The notes under the pieces were generated by a model. The model made no database searches. It saw only the letters and a program-made list of their open reading frames with translations, and had not been told where the DNA came from. The position numbers and the translations under genes are program-made. A stretch of DNA of 64,000 bases from Bacteroidota bacterium (lineage in GTDB: Bacteria > Bacteroidota > Bacteroidia > UKL13-3). Below are positions 2,393 to 62,879 of the stretch, piece after piece. The stretch lies in assembly GCA_947446605.1 (NCBI GenBank), contig CANFHJ010000002.1, forward strand, positions 2,203-66,202. Reading direction: 5' to 3'. Numbering within the stretch: the stretch's first letter is position 1; every line of letters starts with the position of its first letter.

Positions 2393-3319
2393 TCAATTTA
2401 CAATAAAGTCAATATTTCTTTTCAATCCGTTGTATTTGGTGCGCATTACTGCCGATTTATTAAACACTTTTTTAAAAACATCTTCCGTTAAATCAATCCA
2501 TTCATTTGCTTTCATATTCAGTAATAATTCATTCGGTTCGAACCGAGGCTCTTGATGCTTTAAAGCAAACTTATTCCATGGACAAACATTCATGCAAACA
2601 TCACAACCAAAAACCCAGTTATCGAGTTTTCCTTTCATTTCTTCAGGAATGGCCTCTTTTAATTCAATGGTAAAATAGCTGATACATTTACTACCATCCA
2701 CTTTTTGTGCTTCGTAAATTGCTCCGGTAGGACAAGCATCTATGCATGCAGTGCAAGATCCGCAATGATCGGTAACTGGTGTGTCTACTGCCAATGGAAG
2801 GTCAATTATTAATTCACTTAGGAAGAAAAAAGAACCTGCTTTTTTATGAATAATATTTCCATTTTTCCCAATCCAACCTAAGCCACTTTTTTGCGCCCAA
2901 GCTTTTTCTAAAACTGGCGCAGAATCTACAAAAGCCCTGCCATTTACTTCCCCAATTTCTTCTCTAATAAATTGCAATAATTCATGTAGTTTGTCTTTAA
3001 CCACTTCATGGTAATCTTCTCCAAAAGCATATTGAGAAAGTTTTAAATTTCCAGCAATTTTTATTTCATTTGGATTGTGGTAATTATACATCAAACTCAC
3101 TACCGATTTAGCGCCATCTACCAATAGTGTTGGGTCGAGCCGCTTATCAAAATGGTTTTCCATATAGGCCATTTTACCATTCCTACGCTCCTTTAACCAT
3201 TGCACCAAACGCGGTGCTTCATCTTCTAAAAAGCCTGCCTTTGCTATTCCACAAAAAGAAAAGCCGAGGCGCAAGGCCTCAGCTTTTATCAATTGGGAAT
3301 ATTTTTCTAGTGCATTCAA
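2393..3319 (-). CDS. queG: epoxyqueuosine reductase
   Basis: 308 aa with two ferredoxin-type cluster motifs, [12 protein letters not shown] and [11 protein letters not shown], in a QueG-like arrangement. Contains palindrome copy 1. Confidence 0.85.
2533..2546. repeat. iterated palindrome copy 1, TCGGTTCGAACCGA (perfect 14-mer)
   Basis: Read directly. Lies inside queG and encodes RFEP on the minus strand. Confidence 0.95.
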
Positions 3320-3369
3320 TGAAAGTGCAAGATAGAAAAATTGTACTTTTTTTAATTATTTGTAATTGC

Positions 3370-5152: not shown

Positions 5153-5995
5153 TTAATTAGAATTTTTAAGGTTATTAATCGTGATTTCTATATTTTTCTT
5201 TGCTTCCTCTTCAGGCACAAGGCTCTTAAAGGTTTCAAATGACTTAATTGCTAGGTTCTTTTTCCCCATCTGACTATATACTTCTCCTAGGTAATAATGA
5301 AACTCTGGATTCATTGGCTGAATCCTAACAAGCGTCTCAAACCTAGCAGCAGCTTTTTCTATTTGTCCGCTTCTCATAGATTGAATTCCCAAGGTATAAT
5401 TGGCATCAATATTATTAGAATCTCTGCGGGTTACATCTTTTAATAACTGAACACCTTTCATAATGTCCAAATCATTTTGTATGTAACAAATAGCTAAAGC
5501 ATTTTTGGCTTCTAAATTGTTTTCGTTTAAGGAAACAACTTTTTCAAATGCGGCTATGGCCTGTTTTGAAGCATAAATTTGCATGGCAGTATCACTACAA
5601 GTACCAGCAAATTCATAAAAACGCATACCTGCATTTAACCAAGAGTTTTCGTCGTTTAGCTTGGCTGCAAATAAAGCAAAATAATGCGCACCAACTAATT
5701 TGTATCCCAAAGAATCCCATGTATTAGAAATACCGGCAATTTCATAAGTTCTCGCATCAGGTTTATTGGCGGCATCAGTTAGCGTTTTTACTAGCTCATT
5801 GGCTGCAGGACTAATTGAATCCTTTAAATTACTCAAATAGTCATTAAAGTCGAATTGTTTCTGCATGCTCACTGGAGCTTCTCCAACAGAAACGGTTTCC
5901 TCAGGTGTAGCGGATTTGTAATTTAGATAAACTAAAATACCCACCAAACTAAGAAGAACGGCTAAAATTATTATTTGAGCTTTGTTAAATTGCAT
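5153..5995 (-). CDS. membrane-anchored TPR repeat protein
   Basis: 280 aa with an N-terminal TM helix (IIILAVLLSLVGILVYL) and TPR-like repeats (e.g. AKNALAICYIQ, EFHYYLGEVYSQMGK). Its start overlaps the HU stop (TAATG). Confidence 0.6.
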   Translation of the reverse strand: MQFNKAQIIILAVLLSLVGILVYLNYKSATPEETVSVGEAPVSMQKQFDFNDYLSNLKDSISPAANELVKTLTDAANKPDARTYEIAGISNTWDSLGYKLVGAHYFALFAAKLNDENSWLNAGMRFYEFAGTCSDTAMQIYASKQAIAAFEKVVSLNENNLEAKNALAICYIQNDLDIMKGVQLLKDVTRRDSNNIDANYTLGIQSMRSGQIEKAAARFETLVRIQPMNPEFHYYLGEVYSQMGKKNLAIKSFETFKSLVPEEEAKKNIEITINNLKNSN

Positions 5996-6336
5996 TAAGC
6001 TTCTCTTAAGGCTTGTTTTGCTTCAGCTTCTCTTTTTGCAGCTGTTGTTTTTACTACTTCGCTTTTCTTGATTTTTTCAACAAAAGTTTTTGCAGGTTTA
6101 AATGAAGGGATATAATGCTCATCAATAACCATTGCAGTATTTTTTGAGATGTTACGCGCAATTTTCTTAGCACGTCTTTTAATAATAAATGAACCAAAAC
6201 CACGGAAATAAACGTTTTTTCCTTCGGTCATGTTGTTGCGAACCACTTTAAAGAAAGACTCTACTACTTCTTGCACTTGGTTTTTCTCTACACCTGTTTT
6301 AAGTGAAATCTCTTGGATAATTTCTGCTTTAGTCAT
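5995..6336 (-). CDS. HU/IHF-family DNA-binding protein with Lys/Ala-rich C-terminal extension
   Basis: 113 aa. MTKAEIIQEISLKTG...FRGFGSFIIKRRAKKIARN is the HU fold and arm signature. Confidence 0.8.
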   Translation of the reverse strand: MTKAEIIQEISLKTGVEKNQVQEVVESFFKVVRNNMTEGKNVYFRGFGSFIIKRRAKKIARNISKNTAMVIDEHYIPSFKPAKTFVEKIKKSEVVKTTAAKREAEAKQALREA

Positions 6337-6478: not shown

Positions 6479-7549
6479 ATGCTACAAAAAGAACTTCTTT
6501 ATTGGTTCGGTTTAAACAAACGTGAACTTCCTTGGAGAAATACCCAAGATCCTTATATAATATGGCTTTCGGAGGTTATTTTACAGCAAACACGTGTCCA
6601 ACAAGGGCTGCCTTATTTCCAAAATTTTCTTCAAAAATATCCTGATGTTTTTTCGATGGCCGCCGCAAAAGAAGACCAAATTCTCAAAATTTGGCAGGGA
6701 TTAGGTTATTATAGTAGGGCAAGAAATATGCTAAAAACGGCTCGATTGGTTTCCGAAAACTACAATGGGCAATTTCCTAAATCCTATTCCGAGTTAATAA
6801 AGCTAAAAGGAATTGGCCCTTACACAGCTGCCGCCATCGCAAGTTTTGCTTTTAATGAGCCAGTTGCTGTTTTGGATGGTAATGTTTTTCGCGTGCTTTC
6901 GCGCCTATATGCCAAGAATGATCCAATTAATTCTAGTACAGGGAAAAAAGTGTTTGAGGAACTAGCCCATAATTTCCTCAACAAGGCTAATCCAGCTACC
7001 CATAACCAGGCCATCATGGAATTAGGAGCATTGGTTTGTACCCCCAAAAATCCCAATTGTTCTATTTGTCCATTGCAAAAATCTTGTCTTGCCTTTGATT
7101 TGGGTTTGGTTCAAACATTACCCGTAAAATTGAAGAAGCTCAAAGTTAGAACGCGTTTTTTACATTATTTTATTTTTGAAAATAAGGGCAAAATAGCCAT
7201 TTATCAAAGACCTGAGGGCGATATTTGGCAAAATTTATTTGATTTACCTTCCTTTGAAGATACAAGTCATTTGGACAAATTTTTACTTAAAAACAAATTG
7301 CTTGAATTAAATTGGCTTGAGCAAAATGATGAAATTGAATTTCTACTTCAAATGAAACATATTCTTACCCATCAACGTTTAGAGGCCATTTATTTTTTGG
7401 TTCGAACCAATACATTACCTAAATTAAATATAAACGAGCTTTGGATTGAACCGAGAGCATTAAAATTAAAAGCTATACCGCGACTTTTTGATAAATTTCT
7501 AGATTGGTGGAAAAGCAATGACTTAGGAAACTTAACTTTGAAAAAATAA
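6479..7549 (+). CDS. mutY: A/G-specific adenine DNA glycosylase
   Basis: 356 aa with HhH-GPD (LKGIGPYTAAAIASFAF), an Fe-S cluster loop (CTPKNPNCSICPLQKSC) and a C-terminal NUDIX-like domain. Contains palindrome copy 2. Confidence 0.85.
   Translation: MLQKELLYWFGLNKRELPWRNTQDPYIIWLSEVILQQTRVQQGLPYFQNFLQKYPDVFSMAAAKEDQILKIWQGLGYYSRARNMLKTARLVSENYNGQFPKSYSELIKLKGIGPYTAAAIASFAFNEPVAVLDGNVFRVLSRLYAKNDPINSSTGKKVFEELAHNFLNKANPATHNQAIMELGALVCTPKNPNCSICPLQKSCLAFDLGLVQTLPVKLKKLKVRTRFLHYFIFENKGKIAIYQRPEGDIWQNLFDLPSFEDTSHLDKFLLKNKLLELNWLEQNDEIEFLLQMKHILTHQRLEAIYFLVRTNTLPKLNINELWIEPRALKLKAIPRLFDKFLDWWKSNDLGNLTLKK
7397..7410. repeat. iterated palindrome copy 2, TTGGTTCGAACCAA (perfect 14-mer)
   Basis: Read directly. 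Lies inside mutY and encodes VRT. Confidence 0.95.
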
Positions 7550-17960: not shown

Positions 17961-18731
17961 ATGATACGTTTCGATTATTTAGAAGCCAATAAAGACCTAT
18001 TTAGACAGCAATTTTTAGATGCCAAACCCTTTCCACATATTGGCATTGATGGCATTTGTGAAGAGGATAAACTTCTTGCCTTATACAGTCAAATTCCAGA
18101 AATTGAAACACCTAGCGCCGATTATGTTTTTGCTAAAAACAAGTTCGAAAAAAGCAAATATTATGAGTTGGGTGGCCTGTTTCAAGAATTACATGAAGAT
18201 TTCTTAGACCCTCGTTTTGCTGCATTTGTGAGCTATATTTCCAATGAAGCTATTTTTATCGACCCAACATTTTATGGTGGTGGTATTCACCAAGGTAAAA
18301 GGGGAAGCTTTTTAGATATGCATGCCGATTTTAATTACCATCCCTTGCACGATAATTGGTATAGAAACCTAAACCTATTGCTTTATATCAATAAAGATTG
18401 GAAAAAAGAACATGCTGGCGAATTAAAATTAGAAGATGGCAGAACCGGCGAAAAAACGGAAGTAGATGTGCCTTTCAACCGTTTGGCAATTATGCATTGT
18501 AGAAGTTATACTTTACATGGTTACGATCCAATTCAATTCCCTGAAGGCAAATTCAGAACCTCTATTGCAGCCTACGCCTATACCATTCATACAGATCAAA
18601 TGGAGTCTAGTAGAACAACTGTTTGGCACGTTAAAAAGGAAAGCCCAGTTAAATATTTATTGTCAAAAATTTGGGTGCCTGCAGTTAAAATCAAAAGCTA
18701 CTTTAGCAAAAGCAAAACAGCAGATCACTAG
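17961..18731 (+). CDS. 2OG-Fe(II) oxygenase family protein
   Basis: 256 aa with an HxD...H facial-triad candidate (LDMHADFNYH ... YTLHGY) in a prolyl-hydroxylase-like layout. Confidence 0.55.
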   Translation: MIRFDYLEANKDLFRQQFLDAKPFPHIGIDGICEEDKLLALYSQIPEIETPSADYVFAKNKFEKSKYYELGGLFQELHEDFLDPRFAAFVSYISNEAIFIDPTFYGGGIHQGKRGSFLDMHADFNYHPLHDNWYRNLNLLLYINKDWKKEHAGELKLEDGRTGEKTEVDVPFNRLAIMHCRSYTLHGYDPIQFPEGKFRTSIAAYAYTIHTDQMESSRTTVWHVKKESPVKYLLSKIWVPAVKIKSYFSKSKTADH

Positions 18732-23895: not shown

Positions 23896-24399
23896 TTAGT
23901 CCAATTTTACCTTATTTACATGCATCAGCACATCCGTATGGTGATGGCCAGTAAATGCACTAAAGAATTCACCACTTACTTGAATCTTTTTACCTTTCAA
24001 ACCCTTTAATTGTTGGGCATCTTCTGCAGCTAATTGAATTTTATTTACGCCTCTTCTGGTAATATCTCTTCCTTCTTTGCAATTGGTTTGAACCACATTA
24101 ATTGGCTTATCTAAAACCAAAATAAAGGGATATTCTTTCTCATCCGTCTCAGGTGATTCTCCATAATTGGGCGCACCATAAAACATTTCTGTTTTTAAGG
24201 TACCACTAATAGTAGCATCTTCAGCTTCAAAAGTATAATCCCCAGGATTGACAATAGTGTCAGTTTGCAAAATACTCTCTGTTTCCAAAACCATCAAACT
24301 GTCTGTATATACTGGCGTTTTTTTGGCAGCTTCATTCTGGCATGCTATGAAACTGGTTATTGTCAGAATAATTAAGAGGTAAGTTTTTTCTTGTTTCAT
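23896..24399 (-). CDS. lipoprotein, DUF4431-like
   Basis: Lipobox ITSFIAC. The C-terminal region (KIQVSGEFFSAFTGHHHTDVLMHV) resembles DUF4431. Confidence 0.4.
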   Translation of the reverse strand: MKQEKTYLLIILTITSFIACQNEAAKKTPVYTDSLMVLETESILQTDTIVNPGDYTFEAEDATISGTLKTEMFYGAPNYGESPETDEKEYPFILVLDKPINVVQTNCKEGRDITRRGVNKIQLAAEDAQQLKGLKGKKIQVSGEFFSAFTGHHHTDVLMHVNKVKLD

Positions 24400-24421
24400 A
24401 GTTTTATAAATATAACCTTAC

Positions 24422-24613
24422 CTATTGAATATCTTCTAGTTTTTCAAATTCAAATAATATTTCTAATGAATCATTCATTACTAATTTAGATTCAATTTTA
24501 AGCCTTTCACCTAATTCAATTCTATCAGAAAAGTTACCAGATTTTATTTTATCAGAATATTCCTTCGGATTTTCGATTAAGTTTTTGTTAGTAGTAACGG
24601 GTGAAGTTTTCAT
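24422..24613 (-). CDS. small hypothetical protein, 63 aa
   Basis: ORF only. It lies between trpS and the lipoprotein gene on the same strand. Confidence 0.3.
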   Translation of the reverse strand: MKTSPVTTNKNLIENPKEYSDKIKSGNFSDRIELGERLKIESKLVMNDSLEILFEFEKLEDIQ

Positions 24614-24694
24614 AGGAAATTTTTAAATAATTGTGCCAAGCAAAAATACTATTTACAAAAAACAAATTCAATTTAAAATCGATCAACCAACCAA

Positions 24695-27849: not shown

Positions 27850-28194
27850 CTAAACGTGCATTCTGTTTTTCTTTTCCAAAAGCACTTCTTTTGTCTCCAC
27901 CATGTCTGGATCAGGCACACAGCAGTCTACAGGACATACGGCAGCACACTGTGGTTCTTCGTGGAAGCCCACACATTCTGTACATTTTCCGCTTTCAATG
28001 TAGTAAGTGTCTTCAGATTTTGGCGTAAAACGTTTGCTTACGTCAATGGACTCGCCATCAATAGTAATAGTTCCGCTAAGGTTGTTTCCGTCAGCCCATG
28101 CCCATTCGGCACCGGCTTCGTAAATTGCGTTATTCGGACATTCTGGTTCGCACGCACCGCAATTGATACACTCGTCAGTAATTATGATTGCCAT
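27850..28194 (-). CDS. 4Fe-4S dicluster ferredoxin
   Basis: 114 aa. [12 protein letters not shown] near the N-terminus and CxxC...CAAVCPVDC near the C-terminus. Confidence 0.8.
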
Positions 28195-32112: not shown

Positions 32113-32118
32113 TTTTAG

Positions 32119-34702: not shown

Positions 34703-34753
34703 TACTTGGTATAGTTAACAATAGTTAAATAACCTTAAATATCAATACTTTAT

Positions 34754-38956: not shown

Positions 38957-40869
38957 TGACTATCCACAAAATACTTAAGGAATACTGGGGTTTTGATGCA
39001 TTTAGACCCTTACAAGAAGATATTGTTAAGTCAATTCTTTCTGGAAAGGATACATTAGCATTATTGCCTACTGGTGGTGGCAAATCAATTTGTTTTCAAG
39101 TGCCAGCAATGGCAATGGAGGGTTTGTGTTTGGTTATTTCGCCCTTGATTGCATTAATGAAGGATCAGGTGGAGAACCTTGAGGAGCGAGGCATTAAGGC
39201 ACATGCCATTTATGCGGGATTGCATAGACAAGAAATTCAAACTATTTTAAGCAATTGTGTTCACGGGGCTGTTAAATTTTTATACATATCGCCAGAACGC
39301 CTTGGTTCGAGCCTAATTAGGGACCATTTGCATCAAATTAATATTTCATTGCTTGCCATAGATGAAGCACATTGTATTAGTCAGTGGGGTTTTGATTTTA
39401 GACCAGAATACAGAAAAATTATTGAAACAAGGGAATACTTACCCAAAGTGCCTGTTATAGCCTTAACAGCAACTGCAACTGCTAAAGTTGTTGAGGATAT
39501 TCAAACGCAATTAGGCTTTAAACAGGCAAATGTTTTTCGTAAGAGTTTTGAAAGGTTAAACCTTCATTACGTTGTAAGGAAGCAAGAAAACAAATTAGAG
39601 AAAGTTTTAAGCAGCATACAAAAAGCCAGGGGAAGTGGCTTGGTTTATGTTCGTAACCGTAAATTATGCGAAGAAATTGCCAGTTTTTTAATTGCCAATA
39701 ATATTAGTGCTTCCTTTTACCATGCTGGTTTGCAGCCGGAGCTTAGGCAAAAACGACAAGAAGATTGGATTCAAAATAGAACCAGGATAATGGTTTGTAC
39801 CAACGCTTTTGGGATGGGGATTGATAAGCCTGATTGCAGTGTGGTGGTTCATTACGAAATGCCAGATTGTTTAGAGGCCTATTACCAAGAAGCTGGTAGA
39901 GCAGGTAGAAATGGAAAAGCTGCCTTTTGTTTATTGGTGTATCATTCTTCGGATGCCGAAAAAATGAGAAATCGTTTGGAGCAAAGTTTTCCAGAAGAGG
40001 CTATTTTAAAAAGAGTTTACAGTGAATTATGTAGTCATTTTCAATTGCCAATTGACGCCTTAAATGAAGATGGTTTTGATTTTGATATTGGCGTGTTTTC
40101 TAGCCAAATAAAAATGAATCCATTGGTGGTTATGAATGCAATAAAATTATTGTCGCAATTGGATATACTCCATGTCAATGATGCGTTTCATCAATCATCG
40201 CGATTAAAAATGTTGATGAATAGCAATGAACTTTTTGCCTTTCAAAACATTCATACGCCCTACCAAGATTTGGTAAAAATTGTACTTAGGAATTATGGTG
40301 GCATTTTCGATAATTATGTTTCAATAAGTGAAAAGGATTTGGCTATGAAAATTAATTGTTCAGAGATACTAGTAAGGGAGCAATTGGTTAAATTAACTAG
40401 CATAGGTGTGATTGATTATATGCCTCAAAAGGATAATCCGCAGGTATTTATTCATGGCCATAGGGTGGATGCAAATTATTTGAAATTGAACCCAAATCTT
40501 ATTAAAGCACGAAAAGCAATGGAACAGGATAAGTTGGAGGCAATGATTCATTATGCCGAAAACGATGTTCAGTGTAGGAGCAGGGTATTATTGGATTATT
40601 TTGACGAACACCATGTGATGGATTGCGGTGCATGTGATATTTGCAAAGAAAAAAACAACAGCATTTGGCCTGAGGAAAAAATGAAGCAGTTAATTGGTAA
40701 CTTAAATCAACTGCAAAGAAATATAGATTGGCAAATTAAGGACTTGTGCCGCGCTTTGCCTCAATTTAAGGAAGAGGAATTGGTTCGCGCATTTCGTATT
40801 TTATTGGATAAAGGTATATTGCACCTGAATGAACAACAATGTATAAGTTGGATAAAAAGCCATTCATAG
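38956..40869 (+). CDS. recQ: RecQ-family ATP-dependent DNA helicase
   Basis: 637 aa with LPTGGGKS, LLAIDEAHCISQWGFDFRP and a Zn-binding Cys cluster (CRSRVLLDYF...MDCGACDIC). The GTG start overlaps the lolD stop (TAGTG). Confidence 0.85.
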   Translation: MTIHKILKEYWGFDAFRPLQEDIVKSILSGKDTLALLPTGGGKSICFQVPAMAMEGLCLVISPLIALMKDQVENLEERGIKAHAIYAGLHRQEIQTILSNCVHGAVKFLYISPERLGSSLIRDHLHQINISLLAIDEAHCISQWGFDFRPEYRKIIETREYLPKVPVIALTATATAKVVEDIQTQLGFKQANVFRKSFERLNLHYVVRKQENKLEKVLSSIQKARGSGLVYVRNRKLCEEIASFLIANNISASFYHAGLQPELRQKRQEDWIQNRTRIMVCTNAFGMGIDKPDCSVVVHYEMPDCLEAYYQEAGRAGRNGKAAFCLLVYHSSDAEKMRNRLEQSFPEEAILKRVYSELCSHFQLPIDALNEDGFDFDIGVFSSQIKMNPLVVMNAIKLLSQLDILHVNDAFHQSSRLKMLMNSNELFAFQNIHTPYQDLVKIVLRNYGGIFDNYVSISEKDLAMKINCSEILVREQLVKLTSIGVIDYMPQKDNPQVFIHGHRVDANYLKLNPNLIKARKAMEQDKLEAMIHYAENDVQCRSRVLLDYFDEHHVMDCGACDICKEKNNSIWPEEKMKQLIGNLNQLQRNIDWQIKDLCRALPQFKEEELVRAFRILLDKGILHLNEQQCISWIKSHS

Positions 40870-45914: not shown

Positions 45915-47795
45915 ATGGCAGAAGAAGTTGTAAACTATGACGAGAGTAGCATTCGGTCGCTAGATTGGCGAGAACACATCCGTTTGCGTCCAGGTATGTA
46001 CATTGGTAAACTTGGCGATGGTAGTGCCATGGATGATGGTATCTATATCTTGCTCAAAGAAATTATTGACAATTCCATCGATGAATTTGTGATGGGTAAT
46101 GGTCGCCAAATTGATATTAAAATTACCGATAACAAAGCTTTTATCCGCGATTATGGTAGAGGTATTCCATTAGGAAAAGTAATTGAATGCGTTTCTCAAA
46201 TTAATACGGGTGGTAAGTATGATTCTTCTGCCTTTAAAAAATCTGTTGGTTTAAATGGGGTGGGAACTAAAGCTGTAAATGCATTGTCGGCCAATTTTAA
46301 AGCACAATCTTTCCGTGATGGTAAAACCAAAATAGCAGAATTTGAAAAAGGGTTTTTAGTCAGCGAACAGAAATTACAAGATACCATTGAACCCAATGGC
46401 ACGGCCATTACCTTCATTGCAGATGATACCATTTTCAAGCATTTCAAATATATCAATGAATATATTGATAACATGCTTTGGAACTATGTTTACCTTAATT
46501 CTGGTTTAACAATTTGGTTCAACGATAAGAAGTTTTTTTCAAAAGATGGTTTATTGGATTTATTGAAACGCAAAACCAACGAGGAAGCATTGCGTTACCC
46601 AATTATTCACTTGCGTGGAGATGATATAGAAGTGGCCATAACCCACGAAAATCAATATGGTGAAGAGTATTATAGTTTCGTAAATGGGCAGCATACAACG
46701 CAAGGTGGAACACACTTAAATGCCTTCCGTGAAGCCTTTGCAAAAACCATAAGAGACTTTTATAACAAAGATTTTGATCTAGCAGATATTCGTGCAAGTA
46801 TTATAGCAGCCGTTAGTTTAAGGGTGCAGGAACCAGTTTTCGAAAGTCAGACCAAAACAAAATTGGGTTCAGTGAATATGGCCCCAACTGAATCGCCAAC
46901 GGTGCGTCAGTTTGTAATGGATTTCTTCAAGAAGAGTTTGGATGATTTCTTGCACAAACACCCAGAAACGGCTGATGCTATTTTACGTAGGATCAACCAA
47001 AGTGAGCGGGAGCGTAAAGAAATGGCTGGTATTAAGAAGTTGGCCAACGACCGTGCAAAAAAAGCAAATTTACACAACAAGAAATTACGCGATTGTAGGT
47101 ACCATTACAATGAAGCCAAAGATGAGCGTAGGTTCGATACAACTCTTTTTATTACAGAGGGGGATTCTGCTTCTGGATCAATTACTAAAAGTAGAAATGT
47201 AGAATTGCAAGCTGTATTTAGTTTGCGTGGTAAGCCTTTAAATTCATATGGACTAACCAAGAAAATTGTATACGAAAACGAGGAGTTTAATCTTTTGCAA
47301 CATGCGTTAAATATTGAAGAAAGTATTGAAGACTTGCGTTATAATAGAATTGTTGTGGCAACGGATGCCGACGTAGACGGTATGCATATTCGTTTATTAT
47401 TACTCACCTTTTTCCTGCAATTCTTTCCAGATTTAGCTAAGAATGGGCATCTTTATATATTAGAAACACCTTTGTTTAGGGTTCGTAACAAGCAAAAAAC
47501 TATTTATTGTTATACAGAACAAGAGAAGCATGATGCCATTAGACAACTAGGTGTAAGGCCTGAGATCACCCGATTTAAAGGACTTGGTGAGATATCGCCA
47601 AATGAATTTGGGTTGTTTATTGGAGAAGATATGCGTTTGCAACCGGTTGTGTTAACCCCAGATATGCCTATTCAGAAGATGTTGGAATACTATATGGGTA
47701 AAAACACCATGGATCGTCAGGCATTTATTATTGATAATTTAAGAATAGAAAAAGATACCGTTATAGAAGAAGAAGAATTGGAAGAATTGGTTTAA
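45915..47795 (+). CDS. parE: type IIA topoisomerase subunit B (topoisomerase IV ParE-like)
   Basis: 626 aa from ATG 45915 ([31 protein letters not shown]). GHKL ATPase motif EIIDNSIDE and [18 protein letters not shown]. Shorter than a typical GyrB. The track start at 45759 runs through the upstream terminator. Confidence 0.75.
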
Positions 47796-48646
47796 TTCTG
47801 CTCAGCAATAATTCTTTGTTCGCCGCAATACACATTGAAGCGTTGTTCTCTTAAAAAACCAATCAATGTGATATCGTTTTCTTTTGCAAGGTCTAATGCT
47901 AAACTGCTAGGAGCGCCAACTGATGCAACAATTGGAATACCTGCCATTGCTGCTTTTTGAATTAATTCAAAACTGGCGCGTCCACTTAGTAATAATATGC
48001 TTTCTTTAAAACTGTTTTGGTTCGAACCGATGTTAGCGCCAATGAGTTTGTCTAAGGCATTGTGCCTACCAACATCTTCTCTGCTTAATAACAATTCACC
48101 CTTTTTATCAAATAATGCGCAGGCATGCAATCCACCTGTATAGGCAAAAACTTGTTGCAGGTTTTTAAGTGCTTCTGGGAGCTTCAATAGGAGAGAAGGA
48201 GAAATGGGAAAGTCGGCCTTTTTGCTTTTGTCACATTGCTGGTAAACTGCATCAATACTAGCTTTTCCGCATACGCCGCAACTTGATGTGGTGTAGAAAT
48301 TTCTTTGTAATTTACTTAAATCAAAATCAATTTGATCATTGAGTTCAACCCTAACAACATTGTAATTATTTTCTTTTGTTTGAAGTTCTGTACAATACTG
48401 AATACTACTAATGGCATCTTTGTCTTTGATAATTCCTTCGGTGAATAAAAAGCCTAAAGCCAATTCAAAATCATTTCCAGGCGTACGCATGGTTACCGCA
48501 ATTTTCTTTTGTTCGCGCTTATCTATGGAACCAAAACCCAAACGGATTTCTAAAGGTTCTTCAACTGCCAACAAATCTTCCTTATAGGTAGGCAAGCCAT
48601 TTTCAAAACGAATGAGGCGCGTTGCAGCAACAGCAGGTTTATTCAT
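47792..48646 (-). CDS. fdhD: formate dehydrogenase accessory sulfurtransferase FdhD
   Basis: [13 protein letters not shown] motif and Cys pair SSCGVCG. ATG at 48646 lies 1 nt after the upstream stop. Contains palindrome copy 7. Confidence 0.8.
48017..48030. repeat. iterated palindrome copy 7, TTGGTTCGAACCGA
   Basis: Read directly. Encodes GSN on the minus strand in fdhD. Confidence 0.95.
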
Positions 48647-48647
48647 T

Positions 48648-51008
48648 TTACTTAACAATAAAAGATTGGTTGATACTTCTTATTTGGTCTTGGTAAACCA
48701 AAATATAGTTGCCTTTTGTCCAATTTGCCGTTTGAAATTGAAAAGCATTTGCCGTTTTTCCAATTTGAAATTGCTCAATTAACACACCGTTCATATTATA
48801 TATAGTAATACTAGCATGACTGTGAAACTCCGGTAATTCAATTGTTACAAGGTCTTCAGTTGGATTTGGAAATATTTTTAAACTACCTGAATTTTCTGAA
48901 TATCCTTTTATTCCTGCAGAGAAATCATAATATCCAAATGCGTAATCACCGCGTCTTAAATTATTAATCCAAAACCGACCTGTTTTGTCGGTTTTACTTG
49001 GGCCCATTTGTTTGGTTAAATCTGTTTCAACTTCAAAGGCTGTTAAAGGGTTTGGGCGGTATAATAAAACCAAACTGTCTTCAGATCCAGTAATTAATTC
49101 ATTGTCGAGGTGACCAGCAGTTTTACTAGTAATTGTGCCATCATAATTAAAAAATGCGCTTGATTTAAACGCAACCCAAGAACCATCTACATGCCAAAAA
49201 CGCTCATTAGAAACTCTAATTCCTTTGGGCTGAAGCTTAGGATCAACATAAGGTCCAGCAAAATGGTGCTGAATAGCCACCCAATTAGAATCAATATTAT
49301 TTTGAACTGTAATGCTTACGAGTGCGTTTGAAAAAGTTTGCAATCCAGTTCCGTAAATCCATTTTTGATCATGCGTTGTGGCTGTCATCATTCCAAGCAC
49401 GTTATCGCCAATGGTACTTAAACTAGAGAAATTTATGCCTTCGGCAATTATAGCATAATACCTTCCATCTGAATTTCTATGAAACACCAATTGCACAGGA
49501 CTAGGGGTATTACCAATAAAGGCACTTTTTATGGTTGTAATAGGCAGGTCTATAGGCAAGAATGTTTTATAACGCGACATGGCACGTGCCCATATTTTAA
49601 TGGAAGGACCAGAAGTTTCTACTGACTCCATTTGGAGATCGATATTACCTTTGTCGTATATATAGCAATTAAAAAAATCGTTTATACGCGAACCAAACCT
49701 TTGTGCAAAATGCGCTTGTAAATCTGCTGAGCTGGCTGTTTTAAAACTGTATTTGGCTATATAGGATTTACAGGTATTAAAAAACGCAGTGTCGTTGTTT
49801 ATTAATATGCGCAAGCTATGAACCATTAAGGATCCTTTTGTATAAACATGTGTGCCATAGGTTTGTGCTAAGGGAACGCCCGACACAGGTAAATAGGCGC
49901 CATCTCTTGGTTTAGCCCAACGCAAAGCTTCAAAAAGTTCACTACTTATTTTTTCATCATAAGCTTTTCTGCCATAAACACATTCCAAAAACAAGGCTTC
50001 GCAGTAGCTTGCCCAACCTTCGTTAAGCCACATATCCTCAGCAGTTTGCGTTGTTACAAGATTTCCCCACCAATGATGAGATAGTTCGTGTGCAAATAAT
50101 GTTTCATAAGTTGTACTACCATCAACAGCATAAAGCGGATAGGAAATATTACCTGCATGTTCCATTGCACCTGAGGTGAAAGGAACGCCAACGTAGCCAA
50201 CTCTATCAAATTCATAAGGTCCAAAATGTGCCTCAAAACATTGTAAGGCATTGTTTAACTTGGCAAAAGAGGCAATCACTGCAGGAGTATCCTTTGCTTG
50301 TACAGCTAAAGTTATTGGAATATCTCTTTTTATTCCATGGAAAATTTGGTTTACCAAAACATAATTACTTACGGCTACATTTGCTATGTAAGTAGGTATT
50401 TCCTGACTTAAATTCCAATGCCAGGTAATGCCATTGTTAGCCGCTGGCGTGGCCGGTGATTGAATGCCATTACAAACTGCCATGAAACCAGAATCGGTGC
50501 TTATATGAAACTCATAAGTGGCTTTATCTGTAAAATTATCTATACAAGGAAACCAACACCTACCAAAATTTGGTGGATTAGAAGCCATGCCAACGCCCAT
50601 GTTATAGGCGTAATTTCCAGTAAAATAGAATCCTCCCCAACGGGCGTCAATACTTGGGGAGCCGGCATAGGTTATTTTTAGTTGGAGGCTATCGCCAGTT
50701 TGAAAAGTTTGAGAAAAATTTATTTGTACCGTTGAATCTGTTTGCGAAAAATTTGCAGGCAAATTATTGCATAAAATTTCACTCACAGGAAGTTTTAAAA
50801 GGTCGATGCTAATTGACTTGGTATTGGCAAATTTGGCACGACAATTAATAGTGCTTGTTCCGGAAATTTGTTTTGAAGCAATATTTCTAATTGAGCATTC
50901 AATTTTATAGTGTAAAACATCCACAGAATCAATGCGTTCGGCATTAATTTGAAATGGGTTGAGCAATAATAAAATGGCACCTAAGATGGGGGATAAATAC
51001 TTTTGCAT
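48648..51008 (-). CDS. M1 family aminopeptidase with T9SS type A C-terminal sorting domain
   Basis: HELSHHWWGN...WLNEGWASY (HEXXH-18-E). The C-terminal ~80 aa (LKIFPNPTEDLVTIEL...) form a Por-secretion tail. ATG at 51008 (MQKYLSPILGAILLLL signal peptide) is preferred over 51116. Confidence 0.8.
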   Translation of the reverse strand: MQKYLSPILGAILLLLNPFQINAERIDSVDVLHYKIECSIRNIASKQISGTSTINCRAKFANTKSISIDLLKLPVSEILCNNLPANFSQTDSTVQINFSQTFQTGDSLQLKITYAGSPSIDARWGGFYFTGNYAYNMGVGMASNPPNFGRCWFPCIDNFTDKATYEFHISTDSGFMAVCNGIQSPATPAANNGITWHWNLSQEIPTYIANVAVSNYVLVNQIFHGIKRDIPITLAVQAKDTPAVIASFAKLNNALQCFEAHFGPYEFDRVGYVGVPFTSGAMEHAGNISYPLYAVDGSTTYETLFAHELSHHWWGNLVTTQTAEDMWLNEGWASYCEALFLECVYGRKAYDEKISSELFEALRWAKPRDGAYLPVSGVPLAQTYGTHVYTKGSLMVHSLRILINNDTAFFNTCKSYIAKYSFKTASSADLQAHFAQRFGSRINDFFNCYIYDKGNIDLQMESVETSGPSIKIWARAMSRYKTFLPIDLPITTIKSAFIGNTPSPVQLVFHRNSDGRYYAIIAEGINFSSLSTIGDNVLGMMTATTHDQKWIYGTGLQTFSNALVSITVQNNIDSNWVAIQHHFAGPYVDPKLQPKGIRVSNERFWHVDGSWVAFKSSAFFNYDGTITSKTAGHLDNELITGSEDSLVLLYRPNPLTAFEVETDLTKQMGPSKTDKTGRFWINNLRRGDYAFGYYDFSAGIKGYSENSGSLKIFPNPTEDLVTIELPEFHSHASITIYNMNGVLIEQFQIGKTANAFQFQTANWTKGNYILVYQDQIRSINQSFIVK

Positions 51009-60011: not shown

Positions 60012-60548
60012 ATGAATAAAAGATTTCTTACCATTGTATCATTGATTTTTACAGCTGCTTTATTGCGCTTAATTCCACATGCACCAAATTTTAGCCCAAT
60101 TGGCGCGGTTGCCTTATTTGGAGGAGCTTATTTAAATAGAAAATACTTAGCTTATATCATTCCAATTGCGGCAATGATTGTAAGTGATTTATTTTTACCT
60201 TTTTACGGCATAGAGGTATTAATTACTTATGCTGGATTTTTGGTTTCAATATTTATTGGTACCCAATTGAAAAACAATTTAACTTGGTATAATGTGGCAT
60301 TTGGTTCAATGGTTTCATCCTTTGCCTTTTTCTTAATAACCAATTTTGTTTTCTTCTACCCAGCTAGCATGGGACCTTTGTACACACATGATTTGGCTGG
60401 CGTAATGAATAGTTACATCGCAGGATGGCCATTCTTTCAAAATACATTTGCTTCAGATTTAGTTTATAATGGAATATTATTTGGTGCATTTTACTTAATG
60501 CAAGTTAATATCCCAGAACTAAGAGCAGAGAAAATTAAGGCTTCATAA
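60012..60548 (+). CDS. polytopic membrane protein (DUF6580-like, putative transporter component)
   Basis: ATG at 60012 (MNKRFLTIVSLIFTAALLRLIPHAPNFSPIGAVALFGG) with about 5 TM segments. Family assignment is from memory only. Confidence 0.45.
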   Translation: MNKRFLTIVSLIFTAALLRLIPHAPNFSPIGAVALFGGAYLNRKYLAYIIPIAAMIVSDLFLPFYGIEVLITYAGFLVSIFIGTQLKNNLTWYNVAFGSMVSSFAFFLITNFVFFYPASMGPLYTHDLAGVMNSYIAGWPFFQNTFASDLVYNGILFGAFYLMQVNIPELRAEKIKAS

Positions 60549-62181
60549 AATCGAAGTAAGTTTTTCGCGATAGAAATTCAACGCTCAAGTGGTATAAGCC
60601 GCTTGGGCGTTTTTTATAACCTTTAATCAAAAATCGGTTCGAACCTTTTTTTAGTGTTAAAGTTATTCTGTCAATCTCCCCTTTTATGGGCTCCTCAATA
60701 ATTAAAACAACTTTTTGGGGTGCACGTGCGTTGAGGCACAAGTGTAAGTTTTGATCTTGCAGTTCACGCACATCTATGATACTGTCTTGCTGCACGCACA
60801 ATATTTTAGCTGCCAATTCCATATCTGGAATTCCTGCCCCCATGTATTTATCCACTTTATAATATTGAGAGCCACTTAAAATGAGTGCCTCTTTAATTTT
60901 TTCTGCGCTGCTCTTTGGCGCCAATTCAAGTAATTGCGCAGCAGCTCCAGCTATAAGAGGGCAAGAATAAGAGGTGCCATTTCCTTCAAAAACTTTCCCA
61001 TCTGCAGCCAATAATGCTACGCCTTTTCCTAAAGCGCTAATATCGGGTTTCATTCTTTTATCTGCAGTAGGACCAACAGAACTAAAACCGGCATAGGTAT
61101 TAAATTTATCTACAGCACCAATGGTTAAAACGTGCGCTGCGTCTGCAGGTGCGCTAATTTGGCGCCATGGGTCATCTCCCTCATTTCCGGCGCTTACAAG
61201 CACTAAAATACCTTTGCTTGTAGCAATTTCAGCGGCTCTTGTAATGAGTGTTGTTTTGCCATCTAATTCAGAAAACTTATGGCCCATGCTTTTTTCATCG
61301 TGTTTGGTATAGCCTAAAGATGAATTAATAATATCGGCGCCGGCACTATCGGCATATTCTGCAGCCAAGGCCCAAAAATATTCTTCCACCAGGTATTCAT
61401 TGGCGGCATTTTCACTTCTTAATAAAATGTATTGTGCTTTGGTGGCAGTACCTAAAATTAAGCCCGGTTGATAGGCTGCCATACAACTCAAAACTGCCGT
61501 CCCATGCGGATCGTCATCAAATACTTCTTCCTCTTTTTCTACAAAATCATAAGAAGAAAGTATTTGTTTTTCTTTTATCAAGTTTTTAAAAGGCAACAAT
61601 TGATCAGCATTTTTAAAACCAGCATCAATAACTGCTATTAGCACGTTTTTACCACCAATACCAGCTTTTATAAGGCTTTCGTCGTTTAGTTGTTTTATTT
61701 GCGCATAACTTTTTCCAGCCAAAATGGTATCATTCTTTTCCGATTTATTCTGAAAACTCTGTTCTAAAATATTTAATTGGTTCTCCAAGCTATTTTCACT
61801 TGCATCGTCCATTTCATCATAAAAATAGGCAGGTCCCAAATAAGTAACTGCAGCAACAAATGGCAGTAATTTTAAAGAATCAATAATGTTTTTTTGAGCA
61901 CTTAATATTATGGTACCATTAAACCACCTGCTATTGCCATACATGGTTAAAGGTAATGCCGCTAATTGCCTAACATACGAGCTGTCTGGCGGAATATCGT
62001 TTTCGTTTAAAGGAACTCTGTTTCTAGTTCTGCGCTCTATTGCCTTGGCAGATATATAGCTTGCGGGTTGGTATAATTGTGTTTTAAAATTGGGTTTATC
62101 TTTAAAGCTTACAAAATAAAAACGCTGCTGCGCATTTAGGTTCGAACCAATTAATAAAACTAAAAAGAAAATAAACCTCAT
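60535..62181 (-). CDS. S8 family (subtilisin-like) serine peptidase
   Basis: Triad contexts VIDAGF, HGTAVLS and GTSYSCPLIAGAAA, plus a signal peptide. Contains palindrome copies 8 and 9. Confidence 0.8.
   Translation of the reverse strand: MRFIFFLVLLIGSNLNAQQRFYFVSFKDKPNFKTQLYQPASYISAKAIERRTRNRVPLNENDIPPDSSYVRQLAALPLTMYGNSRWFNGTIILSAQKNIIDSLKLLPFVAAVTYLGPAYFYDEMDDASENSLENQLNILEQSFQNKSEKNDTILAGKSYAQIKQLNDESLIKAGIGGKNVLIAVIDAGFKNADQLLPFKNLIKEKQILSSYDFVEKEEEVFDDDPHGTAVLSCMAAYQPGLILGTATKAQYILLRSENAANEYLVEEYFWALAAEYADSAGADIINSSLGYTKHDEKSMGHKFSELDGKTTLITRAAEIATSKGILVLVSAGNEGDDPWRQISAPADAAHVLTIGAVDKFNTYAGFSSVGPTADKRMKPDISALGKGVALLAADGKVFEGNGTSYSCPLIAGAAAQLLELAPKSSAEKIKEALILSGSQYYKVDKYMGAGIPDMELAAKILCVQQDSIIDVRELQDQNLHLCLNARAPQKVVLIIEEPIKGEIDRITLTLKKGSNRFLIKGYKKRPSGLYHLSVEFLSRKTYFDFMKP
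60634..60647. repeat. iterated palindrome copy 8, TCGGTTCGAACCTT
   Basis: Read directly. Encodes GSN (KKGSNRF) near the C-terminus of the S8 peptidase. Confidence 0.95.
62137..62150. repeat. iterated palindrome copy 9, TAGGTTCGAACCAA
   Basis: Read directly. Encodes GSN (LIGSNLN) inside the signal peptide of the S8 peptidase. Confidence 0.95.
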
Positions 62182-62879
62182 GGCAAGTAGTAGTGAATTA
62201 ATTTTTGGTGGATTTTATAGCCAGACACGCCTGTAACCTGTGTGTTCAAATTATTATTGGTGAAGTCTATTAACCCTATTCCATTACTGTAAACAGATTT
62301 TATCAAAATCTCTTCAATAGCATTGTTTGCAAGGGATTCTTGAACGGCAACGCAATCATTAAACACCGTATCGCCATTGTTAAATGCTTGGTGAATGTTT
62401 TGAAGCAAGAAAGTTTTTCTGCCTAAATTATTGCTTTGGTTACCATTCCAAGAAAGCACATTGCCAATAGGAAAAGCTAATTTTACCTGTCTGATATTGT
62501 CTTCAAGCCACTCTAGGTTATTGCTATTTACTATTACAAAAACGCTAGTCCTAGCATGCCAATTTTGTGATGTATCGGTTCGAACCGACCTTAGTATTTC
62601 CCTATGATACTGAAAGGTTTGACCAGAAATGAGTCCTGCAAATTCTTCTTTAAGTATAAAATGAAAGGTGTCGCTGCTATGGGTAATATCACTGTAGGCT
62701 ATAGAATCAACAGCATAATATTTTACTATTCCAGAATCAATAGGAAAAAAGGAATAACCTAAATTGATGGAGTTGTTTGTAGGTGCTGATTTTTTGCAAG
62801 CTGTAATAGCACCTAGCAGTAAAACAAATACCACTAATTTGTTTAGTTTGAATTGCGTATGAGGATGAATTGTATTCAA
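62178..62879 (-). CDS. hypothetical lipoprotein
   Basis: Lipobox LLLGAITAC-KK. I favour the in-frame TTG at 62879 (MNTIHPHTQFKLNKLVVFVLLLGAITAC), which avoids the overlap with mnmA. The track start is 62972. Contains palindrome copy 10. The 3' end overlaps the S8 gene start by 4 nt. Confidence 0.45.
   Translation of the reverse strand: MNTIHPHTQFKLNKLVVFVLLLGAITACKKSAPTNNSINLGYSFFPIDSGIVKYYAVDSIAYSDITHSSDTFHFILKEEFAGLISGQTFQYHREILRSVRTDTSQNWHARTSVFVIVNSNNLEWLEDNIRQVKLAFPIGNVLSWNGNQSNNLGRKTFLLQNIHQAFNNGDTVFNDCVAVQESLANNAIEEILIKSVYSNGIGLIDFTNNNLNTQVTGVSGYKIHQKLIHYYLP
62575..62588. repeat. iterated palindrome copy 10, TCGGTTCGAACCGA (perfect 14-mer)
   Basis: Read directly. Encodes VRT (LRSVRTDT) on the minus strand. 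Confidence 0.95.

Follow-up and report, generated by a model that had tools for sequence, protein, structure and literature searches.

A 14-bp palindrome dispersed through unrelated genes of a narrow freshwater clade of uncultured Bacteroidota, a possible self-DNA tag

The 14-bp palindrome TYGGTTCGAACCRA appears to be a signature word throughout the genomes of a narrow freshwater clade of uncultured Bacteroidota. In the window, i.e. the whole 64-kb stretch of DNA that was analysed, ten perfect copies of its central decamer GGTTCGAACC were found. The aligned sites indicate that this palindrome is of recent origin, a dialect derived from an older, non-palindromic word, (Y)TTGGTTCAAAC(C), by a central CA/TG to CG change, and this relationship is the main point added to the first-pass annotation of the same DNA. 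We tentatively interpret the motif as a self-DNA tag of the USS/DUS/HIP1 kind, recognised by a symmetric protein and propagated via transformation and recombination (probability roughly 0.4).

The ten perfect decamers, all of which had been located correctly in the first-pass annotation, compare with a chance expectation of 0.02 in dinucleotide shuffles and 0.015-0.03 under Markov models of orders 0-3, and GGTTCGAACC was the sole palindromic 10-mer with at least four copies in the window. Under a codon-aware null, in which the proteins were kept and synonymous codons were permuted 2000 times, the mean was 0.07 and the maximum 3. The flanks are constrained as had been claimed, with 18 of 20 half-flanks fitting the consensus and five copies being perfect 14-mers. 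Among 15 sites chosen without regard to the flank (30 half-sites), position -2 was T in 29/30 and position -1 was Y in 28/30, while information was absent past +/-2; the real unit is the 14-bp palindrome. The hexamer TTCGAA occurs 20 times, ten of these within the decamer, and the other ten in 64 kb are inside the control range, which agrees with the earlier statement that the hexamer by itself is not enriched. All seven one-mismatch copies listed before were found, but the total is eight (0.74 expected), one having been overlooked (Table 1).

Sites of the TYGGTTCGAACCRA type occur once per 6.4 kb of the window. The ten decamers lie in ORFs and are read as VRT (five), GSN (four) and FEP (one), as described before; given a coding density of 93% this is unremarkable by itself. 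The unrelated host genes named earlier were corroborated by Pfam (queG, mutY, LuxC-like acyl-CoA reductase, aldose epimerase, GT4, FdhD, S8 peptidase twice, two hypotheticals), and no copy fell within an RNA gene.

Table 1. Motif copies in the window and their state in related loci (L numbers; L265 is from the sister species Jr-16oct17-39).
Position	Strand	Sequence	Host gene	Peptide	Related loci
2533..2546	.	TCGGTTCGAACCGA, perfect 14-mer	queG (2393-3319, minus)	R-F-E-P	identical in L265:4595-4608
7397..7410	.	TTGGTTCGAACCAA, perfect 14-mer	mutY (6479-7549, plus)	L-V-R-T	kept in L265
19760..19773	.	TCGGTTCGAACCGA, perfect 14-mer	589-aa hypothetical (18728-20497, minus)	G-S-N-R	kept in L259; TG-dialect TCGGTTTGAACCAA at orthologous position in distant L262
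28480..28493	.	TCGGTTCGAACCGA, perfect 14-mer	LuxC-like acyl-CoA reductase (28279-29289, plus)	S-V-R-T-E	kept in L259; TCGGTTCAAACCGA in L262
33180..33193	.	TTGGTTCGAACCGA	aldose 1-epimerase (32532-33410, plus)	L-V-R-T-D	kept in L259; TTGCTTCAAATGGA in L260
41373..41386	.	TTGGTTCGAACCGA	GT4 glycosyltransferase (40839-41939, plus)	L-V-R-T-E	
48017..48030	.	TTGGTTCGAACCGA	fdhD (47792-48658, minus)	I-G-S-N-Q	
60634..60647	.	TCGGTTCGAACCTT	S8 peptidase (60535-62181, minus), near 3' end	K-G-S-N-R	kept in L252, L253; TG form with full flank in L264; AAAGGTTTGAATAGG in L257
62137..62150	.	TAGGTTCGAACCAA	S8 peptidase, signal-peptide region	I-G-S-N-L	CG form in L252, L253, L254, L264; GGTTTGAACC (G-L-N) in L256, L257, L258
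62575..62588	.	TCGGTTCGAACCGA, perfect 14-mer	264-aa hypothetical (62178-62972, minus)	S-V-R-T-D	kept in L252, L253; TTGGTTCAACCCGA in L257; TGGGTTCAAACAGA in L256
7106..7119	+	TTGGTTCAAACATT, old dialect, not converted	mutY		new-dialect TTGGTTCGAACCTT in L265:9169-9182
24083..24096	.	TTGGTTTGAACCAC, old dialect, TG centre; contains overlooked one-mismatch GGTTTGAACC (24085)	DUF4431 gene		kept in L259
13318..13327	.	GGCTCGAACC, one mismatch	1447-aa T9SS cargo gene		kept in L265
14606..14615	.	GGGTCGAACC (TCGGGTCGAACCAT), one mismatch	CN-hydrolase		kept in L265
20209..20218	.	GGTTCGAATC, one mismatch			not kept in L259
22419..22428	.	CGTTCGAACC, one mismatch			CTTTCGAACC in L259
26458..26467	.	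GGTTCGATCC, one mismatch			
39304..39313	.	GGTTCGAGCC, one mismatch	recQ		
63484..63493	.	GGTTCGAGCC, one mismatch	mnmA		kept in L252, L253, L254, L255, L256; GGCTAGAACC in L257, L258

The enrichment is confined to certain lineages: neither GGTTCGAACC nor TYGGTTCGAACCRA was present across 1.109 Mb taken from related Bacteroidota loci, i.e. those in which a GyrA/ParC-type topoisomerase subunit shares 62-94% identity with the one in the window. Among the matches listed in a genome scan were at least 11 loci of low-GC lake Bacteroidota MAGs from at least 8 assemblies; loci from at least 4 assemblies (C3_concoct.bin.81, Ja_bin-4299, Loclat_bin-05405 and MP5IB2.37) had a second consensus-flanked copy within 8 kb, and Loclat_bin-05405 was matched at least four times among the matches listed. 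By extrapolation, a genome would contain several hundred to a few thousand copies. Among named taxa, Mucilaginibacter and Pseudopedobacter are the closest relatives, pointing to a Sphingobacteriales-like clade, and CpG is depleted across it (observed/expected 0.60-0.79 versus 0.99 in controls). The 49 viral contigs with the motif each had a single copy only. Such a hyper-abundant self-tag-like word was not described for Bacteroidota in the literature searched.

Between the window and Jr-16oct17-39 the sites were conserved in 5/5 cases (background 14-mers 16-18%), and between the window and L259 in 3/3 (background 37%). For the distant lineage L262, 2/3 sites matched at 9/10 or more bases (background 11%), a difference of modest significance. 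Copies arise by point substitution in existing sequence, in any frame and on either strand, and are then kept at orthologous positions.

The older word is hyper-abundant in more distant sister lineages, the densest of which has one copy per 1.3 kb. In the sister lineage L257, TTGGTTCAA was found 16 times in 21.6 kb versus 0.47 in shuffles (0.6 Mb of control DNA gave about 2 per 64 kb), and L262 carries three copies of TCGGTTYRAACCRA. Strand skew was absent from the asymmetric dialect of L257 (11 plus-strand and 7 minus-strand copies in 21.6 kb), and 5/12 core sites there are intergenic. One inverted pair of old-dialect copies in a sister lineage, located directly 3' of queA, is predicted to fold into a terminator-like hairpin (15 bp, -22 kcal/mol) with a T-rich tail behind it, a single example. 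At each of the six window sites with an alignable outgroup, a CA or TG centre was found in at least one outgroup. The conversion to the CG dialect appears to have continued after speciation, as judged from the old-dialect copy in mutY and its counterpart in the sister species (Table 1).

In orthologue alignments the sites had arisen by substitution, mostly within variable protein segments. The VRT and GSN peptides are not conserved in motif-free orthologues, which have Leu or Gln there or are hypervariable. Both S8 sites show Leu to Ser: at the C-terminal site the orthologues read K-G-L-N-R in 29/60 and Ser is confined to the window clade, and at the N-terminal site the polarity is ambiguous, since G-S-N is also found in P0003 and P0020-P0024. 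The LuxC-like protein shows Gln to Arg, with S-V-Q-T-E in CA-dialect lineages and hypervariable residues in other lineages. In MutY, L-V-R-T (Arg) occurs only in the window clade; the more distant P0263 reads L-V-Q-T, and the rest of the 100 homologues are hypervariable in this stretch. From these alignments, the change to a CG centre would often be non-synonymous (Leu to Ser, Gln to Arg). The codons used are rare (CGA is 8% of Arg codons, TCG 7% of Ser codons). Given that substitutions towards the palindrome change residues and use rare codons, this indicates that the process acts on DNA and is directional. For the mnmA copy, protein constraint and not the motif may be behind the conservation.

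The two-fold symmetry over 14 bp suggests that duplex DNA is recognised by a symmetric, probably homodimeric, sequence-specific protein. Two candidate readers were rejected: HU (5995-6336) lacks sequence specificity, and motif-poor lineages also have the second, a conserved 152-aa protein whose HTH_3 match is weak. The specificity of the recognising protein would have shifted at the centre (A to G), after which existing sites one step away would have been converted. Under the self-tag reading, tagged fragments would be preferentially bound, taken up or recombined in natural transformation; such handling would allow mutations towards the consensus to spread by molecular drive, and protein constraint would limit this spread. 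The two orientations, the intergenic L257 sites, the inverted-pair hairpin and the single viral copies are shared with USS/DUS and favour this reading. Riemerella columbina, also of the Bacteroidota, is reported to be naturally competent and to prefer self DNA, with no USS identified (PMC7965970), and HIP1 raises transformation efficiency (bioRxiv 10.1101/2024.09.10.611283). Against a tag, known USS and DUS are non-palindromic, the window density is 5-6 times below theirs, and the copies in the window lineage are mostly coding (10/11), with no excess at terminators. About 0.3 Mb of clade DNA from these organisms, all uncultured, yielded no gene for uptake or competence and no other cognate gene. 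Direct selection for a DNA-binding site, or a repair ratchet, would predict the conservation and the directional substitution equally well.

Such a ratchet, as in Elhai's model for HIP1, would involve an orphan methyltransferase acting on the TTCGAA/TCGA core in an extended context, perhaps with a Vsr-like or mismatch-repair bias, by which near-sites are corrected to the palindrome. We consider it unlikely, although the palindrome has a central CpG, the dialect shift is exactly the TG/CA to CG that T:G to C:G repair bias would produce, CpG is depleted clade-wide, and HIP1 has been linked to two methyltransferases, DmtA and DmtC (PMC4390886). A 6-bp-specific system would not give a 14-bp logo, TTCGAA outside the decamer is not enriched, and the older TTGGTTCAAAC is asymmetric and without a palindromic methylation core, yet more abundant. 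Moreover, VSP-type biases are known to yield only modest enrichments. A crude regex screen for methyltransferase signature motifs over about 300 kb of clade DNA was negative, and no methyltransferase domain was detected by Pfam in the window ORFs; this weighs little, as the screened sequence is a minor part of each genome.

It is also doubtful that the copies serve as binding sites for an abundant protein that organises the nucleoid or chromosome and recognises a specific sequence (as a dimer in the window clade), and that purifying selection on chromosome structure maintains them, a role proposed for HIP1 by Xu et al. (PMC5861425). A 14-bp dyad is typical of dimeric HTH operators, conservation exceeds background and the sites are tolerated anywhere within genes, but known organiser sites are few and regional, an asymmetric old dialect is ill-suited to a simple dimer, and the window offered no candidate protein. 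The ParB/Noc/SlmA/MatP idea of the first-pass annotation fits poorly with about one site per 6 kb at arbitrary positions in other MAGs, not just near dnaN, and is further strained by one per 1.3 kb in a sister lineage and by the asymmetric older dialect.

Chi sites span 5-8 nt, lack symmetry and show a strong orientation bias relative to replication. A Chi-like hotspot for a RecBCD/AddAB-type enzyme, an effect suggested for HIP1 (bioRxiv 10.1101/2024.09.10.611283), would account for a short over-represented word differing among lineages but is very improbable, given a 14-bp palindrome in the window and an asymmetric L257 dialect without strand skew. A coding artefact (favoured peptide, codon usage or composition), an RNA gene or remnants of a mobile miniature repeat can practically be dismissed: every window copy lies in a CDS with just three peptide readings, but the codon-aware null, the rare codons, the unrelated hosts, the use of all three frames, the different residues in motif-free orthologues, the absence from 1.1 Mb of relatives and the RNA-gene check rule out the former, and a mobile or longer repeat, the latter already rejected in the first-pass annotation, is ruled out because nothing is conserved past the 14-mer and the six aligned coding sites have ungapped columns without indels in the window clade.

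The earlier interpretation was supported in part: the ParB-type reading is a poor fit, the analogy with HIP1 and DNA uptake sequences is of the right class, strengthened by lineage dialects, orthologous-site conservation and the putative terminator-like pair of a sister lineage, and the finding survived checks against the codon-aware null, a longer repeat and peptide conservation. Chi is likewise an over-represented, taxon-specific, recombination-linked oligomer, but it is short, asymmetric and replichore-skewed, and the motif has none of these properties. Noc NBS, SlmA SBS, matS and parS resemble it as 12-16-bp dyad-symmetric sites read by dimers and tolerated inside genes; those sites occur by the tens per genome and show regional bias or confinement, whereas the motif is found at arbitrary loci, with rapid dialect turnover between lineages and, by extrapolation, far more copies.

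USS of Pasteurellaceae and DUS of Neisseriaceae are reportedly hyper-abundant words of 9-12 nt (compare about 1 per kb in a CA-dialect lineage here), present in two orientations and within genes at weakly constrained positions where they affect the encoded peptides, with lineage dialects 1-2 bases apart and inverted pairs acting as terminators, and built up by point mutation and not transposition. Known USS and DUS are proteobacterial and asymmetric, whereas the window dialect, at about 1 copy per 6 kb, is perfectly palindromic and lacks an intergenic excess. HIP1 (GCGATCGC) is a short palindrome, over-represented 15-fold to several hundred-fold, whose copies are scattered over genes in every reading frame and retained at orthologous positions; it is in some cases extended to at least 10 bp, and particular lineages have variant palindromes in its place. 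In Synechocystis PCC 6803 the extended sequence is GGCGATCGCC. A fixed extension is present on 88% of HIP1 copies in that strain (Elhai; PMC4390886). The present motif differs from cyanobacterial HIP1 in phylum, in its unrelated sequence and longer 14-bp specificity, in being sparser in the window lineage, in its non-palindromic ancestral dialect and in having no known associated methyltransferase. The function of HIP1 is still debated (PMC4390886, PMC5861425), and a self-tag role is now argued for it as well. Like the self-tags of a few other groups, the 14-bp palindrome has been introduced repeatedly, through point mutations some of which alter amino acids, into genes that are not related to one another, within a small set of uncultured bacteria from lakes.

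Exactly 10 perfect copies of the palindromic decamer GGTTCGAACC were found in the 64 kb of the window, at the coordinates that the first-pass annotation had read by eye, and the expected number was 0.02 from dinucleotide-preserving shuffles and 0.015-0.03 from Markov models of order 0-3. The excess survived the codon-aware comparison that the annotation had proposed as a check: in 2000 permutations of the synonymous codons of 52 ORFs, with every encoded protein left unchanged, the decamer appeared 0.07 times on average and at most 3 times. One-mismatch copies, earlier put at seven or more, numbered eight (0.74 expected) with the addition of GGTTTGAACC at 24085, and the reported translation of the perfect copies as VRT (five), GSN (four) and FEP (one) was confirmed. 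The codons used in the motif are rare ones (CGA accounts for 8% of Arg codons and TCG for 7% of Ser codons). Given a coding density of 93%, the location of the motif within coding sequences was uninformative by itself, and no strand or frame preference was observed. No copy was located in an RNA gene of the window, the only RNA gene found being a tRNA-Leu (32118-32202). A resemblance to the tRNA T-arm (GGTTCRAAtCC) was rejected on this observation, on a loop that is one base short and on the lack of bias of the asymmetric form of the word relative to transcription.

The flanks were examined at 15 sites that had not been chosen by their flanks. The constraint noted earlier held, given that 29 of the 30 half-sites had T at position -2 and 28 had Y at position -1, and no information was present beyond +/-2 nt. 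With positions -1 and -2 this sharp and nothing further out, the unit is the 14-bp palindrome TYGGTTCGAACCRA and not a fragment of a longer repeat. Outside the decamer the hexamer TTCGAA had 10 copies in 64 kb, a number like that of related genomes, and the entire excess resided in the 10-14-mer, as had been claimed; a TTCGAA restriction-modification target (BstBI/AsuII type) and a generic TTCGAA repair or restriction effect were rejected because the hexamer is unenriched outside the motif. GGTTCGAACC was also the sole palindromic 10-mer that reached at least four copies in the window. The class of HIP1, the cyanobacterial highly iterated palindrome, is marked by a more than 10-fold genome-wide excess of the exact palindrome; here 10 copies were found for 0.02 expected in 64 kb, and the word recurs in sister-species loci and other MAGs.

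The enrichment of the motif is lineage-restricted. The window matched a lake metagenome contig and MAG GCA_947450455.1 at 99.9% or more, and for its MutY and LuxC-like proteins the closest named relatives were from Mucilaginibacter (53-57% identity) and Pseudopedobacter. We infer that the window clade, i.e. the window and its close sisters with CG-centred sites, consists of uncultured Sphingobacteriales-like freshwater Bacteroidota. No copy of the decamer was found in a control set of 80 metagenomic loci (1.109 Mb), selected for a GyrA/ParC-type topoisomerase subunit 62-94% identical to that of the window. In a separate scan of viral contigs for TCGGTTCGAACCGA, 49 contigs had one copy each, without clustering. 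A scan for TCGGTTCGAACCGA in one genome per prokaryotic species (GTDB), which does not give genome-wide counts, matched at least 118 stretches, mostly high-GC singletons. Among the matches listed were at least 11 loci from eight low-GC lake Bacteroidota MAG assemblies (Loclat_bin-05405 four times), and in loci of at least four of these eight a second copy, likewise flanked by T-Y...R-A, was present within 8 kb. Given that these second copies were found at randomly located 8-kb loci of other MAGs, the word is not confined to the dnaN region.

Other compositional features were also observed. In the motif-bearing clade, motif-poor members included (the window and loci L252-L264 of its relatives), the observed/expected ratio was 0.60-0.79 for CpG and 1.33-1.56 for GpC, and the corresponding values in other Bacteroidota loci (1.1 Mb) were 0.99 and 1.21. 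CAATTG showed a second, milder palindrome excess, with 78 copies in the window, 3.6-fold over what composition predicts and about 2.4-fold denser than in the controls; CCAATTGG was present 7 times (10-fold) and TTCCAATTGGA four times, and GCAATTGC and TCCAATTGG, which are related to the CAATTG excess, were among the top k-mers of the sister loci L257, L262 and L264. When 60-odd control loci were screened for 10-mers, the only other hyper-abundant words were tandem-repeat-like. In the unrelated Bacteroidota control loci L179, L242 and L230, the highly repeated 10-mers (e.g. TCATAACTCA, 28 times in 17.8 kb) presumably belong to tandem or CRISPR-like arrays.

Searches with the S8 peptidase, LuxC-like and MutY proteins led to homologues in syntenic DNA of graded relatives, and about 0.3 Mb of clade DNA was read, with few sites per comparison. 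The close sisters at 84-90% nucleotide identity (L252, L253 and L265 = Jr-16oct17-39, L259) retained window sites: 5/5 in Jr-16oct17-39, for a background of 16-18% perfectly conserved 14-mers, 3/3 in L259 (background 37%) and 3/4 in L252. Orthologous sites were in this way kept above background, as in the HIP class, on small site numbers, and for the more distant L262 conservation of window sites was only modestly significant. No indels were present at coding sites in the synteny alignments; the sites arise by substitution. A mobile short repeat (REP or MITE) was rejected on this result, on the lack of information beyond the immediate flanks and on the presence of copies in coding sequences.

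The relatives at 59-70% identity were of two kinds, motif-poor (L254, B1(2017); L260, a 2.88-Mb contig) or with another dialect (L257, GCA_021740845.1; L262; L264), an older word centred on CA/TG. The 21.6 kb of L257 contained no CG palindrome, 16 copies of TTGGTTCAA and 8 of TTGGTTCAAAC, compared with 0.47 copies of TTGGTTCAA in shuffles; in 0.6 Mb of low-GC control DNA TTGGTTCAA was present about 2 times per 64 kb and TTGGTTCAAAC was absent. Counting 16-18 copies, the density of the old dialect in L257 is about 1 per 1.3 kb, with 11 copies on the plus strand and 7 on the minus strand in this one 21.6-kb stretch and 5 of 12 core copies intergenic. DNA uptake sequences are found at about 1 per kb, in either orientation and both within genes and between them, a pattern that L257 matches; the window lineage has about 1 copy per 6.4 kb, nearly all coding. 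L262 carried the quasi-palindrome TCGGTTYRAACCRA three times, and L264 is a milder CA-dialect genome. By public assembly, GCA_947450455.1, GCA_947449515.1, Loclat_bin-05405 (CAILJQ01) and Ja_bin-4299 (CAIYNF01) have the CG dialect, GCA_021740845.1 and GCA_027487835.1 have the CA dialect, and GCA_002256395.1 and the 2.88-Mb contig (Ga0621872_00010) are motif-poor.

Forms of the word in relatives at positions orthologous to motif sites of the window
Window site	Locus of relative	Form at the orthologous position
19762	L262	TCGGTTTGAACCAA
28482	L262	TCGGTTCAAACCGA
33182	L260	TTGCTTCAAATGGA
60636	L264	TG form
62139	L256, L257, L258	GGTTTGAACC
62577	L257	TTGGTTCAACCCGA

Lineage dialects and orthologous conversion, as known for the DNA uptake sequences of Pasteurellaceae (USS) and Neisseriaceae (DUS), were thus seen as CG, CA/TG and asymmetric forms at orthologous positions. 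At 7106 the window has TTGGTTCAAACATT and Jr-16oct17-39 has TTGGTTCGAACCTT, which indicates that conversion went on after speciation, and several other near-sites were nearer to consensus in one of these two than in the other. At L257:2001-2036 (contig JAIOYZ010000002.1) the inverted pair CACTTGGTTCAAAC-aaatttct-GTTTGAACCAAGTG gives a 15-bp hairpin (-22.2 kcal/mol, z = -6.6) directly 3' of queA and followed by a T-rich tail. This single clear case looks like a terminator, as DUS/USS pairs do; no terminator-like inverted motif pairs were found within the window.

A one-mismatch copy in mnmA (63484-63493, GGTTCGAGCC) was kept in L252-L256, which include both sisters and motif-poor lineages, and is GGCTAGAACC in L257 and L258 of the CA-dialect lineage; given that it is kept even in motif-poor lineages, it is probably held by the MnmA protein sequence and not by the motif process. 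Between the DUF4431 gene and trpS (window positions about 24400-24694), the sister L259 has an insertion absent from the window (L259:4803-6368) with a PemK-family toxin gene, a 76-aa ORF that is probably the antitoxin and a 311-aa ORF, and no motif copies in the inserted DNA. At window 33383-35212, small conserved ORFs of unknown function are clustered, three on the minus strand (117, 100 and 157 aa) and one on the plus strand (152 aa). The product of the plus-strand ORF matches HTH_3 weakly in L259 and is conserved at the same length in L260 and L262, and the three minus-strand ORFs are replaced in L262 by a Polyketide_cyc-like gene. Two ORFs overlap on opposite strands at 27850-28218. The minus-strand ORF (27850-28194) has the only Pfam match of the pair, a 4Fe-4S ferredoxin, and is called as a gene in sister loci, and the plus-strand ORF (27856-28218) is probably a shadow ORF.

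A constraint on the encoded peptides, raised in the first-pass annotation as an explanation that would count against a DNA-level motif, was examined in protein alignments, and the motif survived. At the C-terminal site of the S8 peptidase, 29/60 orthologues have K-G-L-N-R and the window clade has G-S-N (TTG to TCG), with Ser at this position confined to the window clade. At the N-terminal S8 site most orthologues are G-L-N (25/60), and G-S-N is also present outside the window clade (P0003, P0020-P0024); since CG is found in L254 and L264 as well, the polarity of this site is ambiguous. The LuxC-like protein has S-V-R-T-E in the window clade, compared with S-V-Q-T-E in the CA-dialect lineages, and is hypervariable here in other lineages; MutY has L-V-R-T in the window clade alone, inside a hypervariable segment. 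Of the four protein sites examined, three thus have Ser or Arg in the window clade only. With the exception of the ambiguous S8 N-terminal site, these comparisons show that the residues of the window clade are derived and that the proteins do not need them. A peptide or codon artefact is refuted. Simple 5mC-deamination decay of an ancestral CG palindrome in the sisters was likewise rejected as the whole story, on this confinement of Ser and Arg and on the many lineage-specific, asymmetric copies at high density in L257, which argue that the L257 dialect is actively maintained and not a mere decayed palindrome.

Taken together, the extreme lineage-specific enrichment, the origin by point mutation, the above-background conservation and the dialect shift with its non-synonymous cost amount to a directional process at the DNA level, which turned an older, related word into the 14-bp dyad of one clade and maintains it there. 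The motif would be recognised as duplex DNA by a symmetric protein. We favour, with a probability of roughly 0.4, the reading that it serves as a self-DNA tag in uptake or recombination and accumulates by molecular drive, because of the way the dialects behave, the USS-like density and the terminator pair seen in a sister lineage, the placement in weakly constrained protein segments, the self-DNA preference reported for competent Riemerella columbina, in which the USS was not identified (PMC7965970), and the recent evidence that HIP1 promotes transformation (bioRxiv 10.1101/2024.09.10.611283). More doubtful is the fuller proposal that the motif would represent the first tag in Bacteroidota for sequence-specific recognition of self DNA (uptake/recombination signal), a 14-bp palindrome read by a dimeric receptor and seen shortly after a switch from TTGGTTCAAAC to TYGGTTCGAACCRA that rewrote sites and forced amino-acid replacements, with sister lineages in which either the old dialect persists at USS-like density or the system has been lost and is in decay. 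No cognate gene (methyltransferase, restriction enzyme, Vsr, competence protein or specific regulator) was identified by Pfam among window ORFs of at least 100 aa, the matches being to dnaN, RNase G, HU, MutY, SSB, GldD, RecQ, topoisomerase subunits, peptidases and others; methyltransferases that recognise an internal sub-sequence accompany palindromes of the HIP class, but a regex search through about 300 kb of clade DNA gave no methyltransferase signature motifs. No competence genes were present in the clade DNA read.

A ratchet driven by a methyltransferase or by repair would agree with the direction of change, from TG to CG, and with the depletion of CpG throughout the clade, but is held to be unlikely given the 14-bp specificity, the unenriched free TTCGAA and the asymmetric dialect. 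Selection on a site for a nucleoid protein has a similarly small chance of being correct: dyad symmetry and conservation fit such a site, but the density and the absent regional restriction do not. The earlier suggestion of a ParB/Noc/SlmA/MatP-type operator was not borne out, since organiser sites number in the tens within one macrodomain and the word here occurs once per 1.3-6.4 kb and at random loci of at least four other MAG assemblies. A Chi-like role is very improbable, as Chi and KOPS motifs are asymmetric with replichore skew, but the window word is palindromic and the L257 dialect is only 11:7 in one 21.6-kb stretch. The Dnd phosphorothioation consensus GAAC/GTTC, both words of which lie within the motif, was considered and set aside; we know of no Dnd system that enriches a 10-mer.

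If the motif serves as an uptake tag, abundant lake Bacteroidota would exchange genes with a bias towards kin, and the tag would offer a practical handle for transforming them. Whichever process is at work, it overrides protein sequence at the DNA level (Leu to Ser, Gln to Arg). The four states found among syntenic close relatives (palindromic new, quasi-palindromic CA/TG, dense asymmetric and motif-poor) amount to a natural experiment, from which phylogenetic profiling of a few public MAGs could pinpoint the cognate protein, and this protein would reveal if words of this kind act as uptake tags, as repair ratchets or as architectural sites. The origin and role of hyper-abundant words, HIP1 especially, are still debated. 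In the literature searched, neither GGTTCGAACC nor TTGGTTCAA was described in Bacteroidota, and nothing relevant on HIP or DUS was found with Bacteroidetes. To our knowledge, only the Pasteurellaceae, the Neisseriaceae and the cyanobacteria, three groups of bacteria, are known to have oligomers that are hyper-abundant and non-mobile, and the present case sits in a different phylum from these. The nearest precedents are the HIP1 variants and the DUS dialects, and USS/DUS and HIP1 are the only known phenomena that share this combination of properties.
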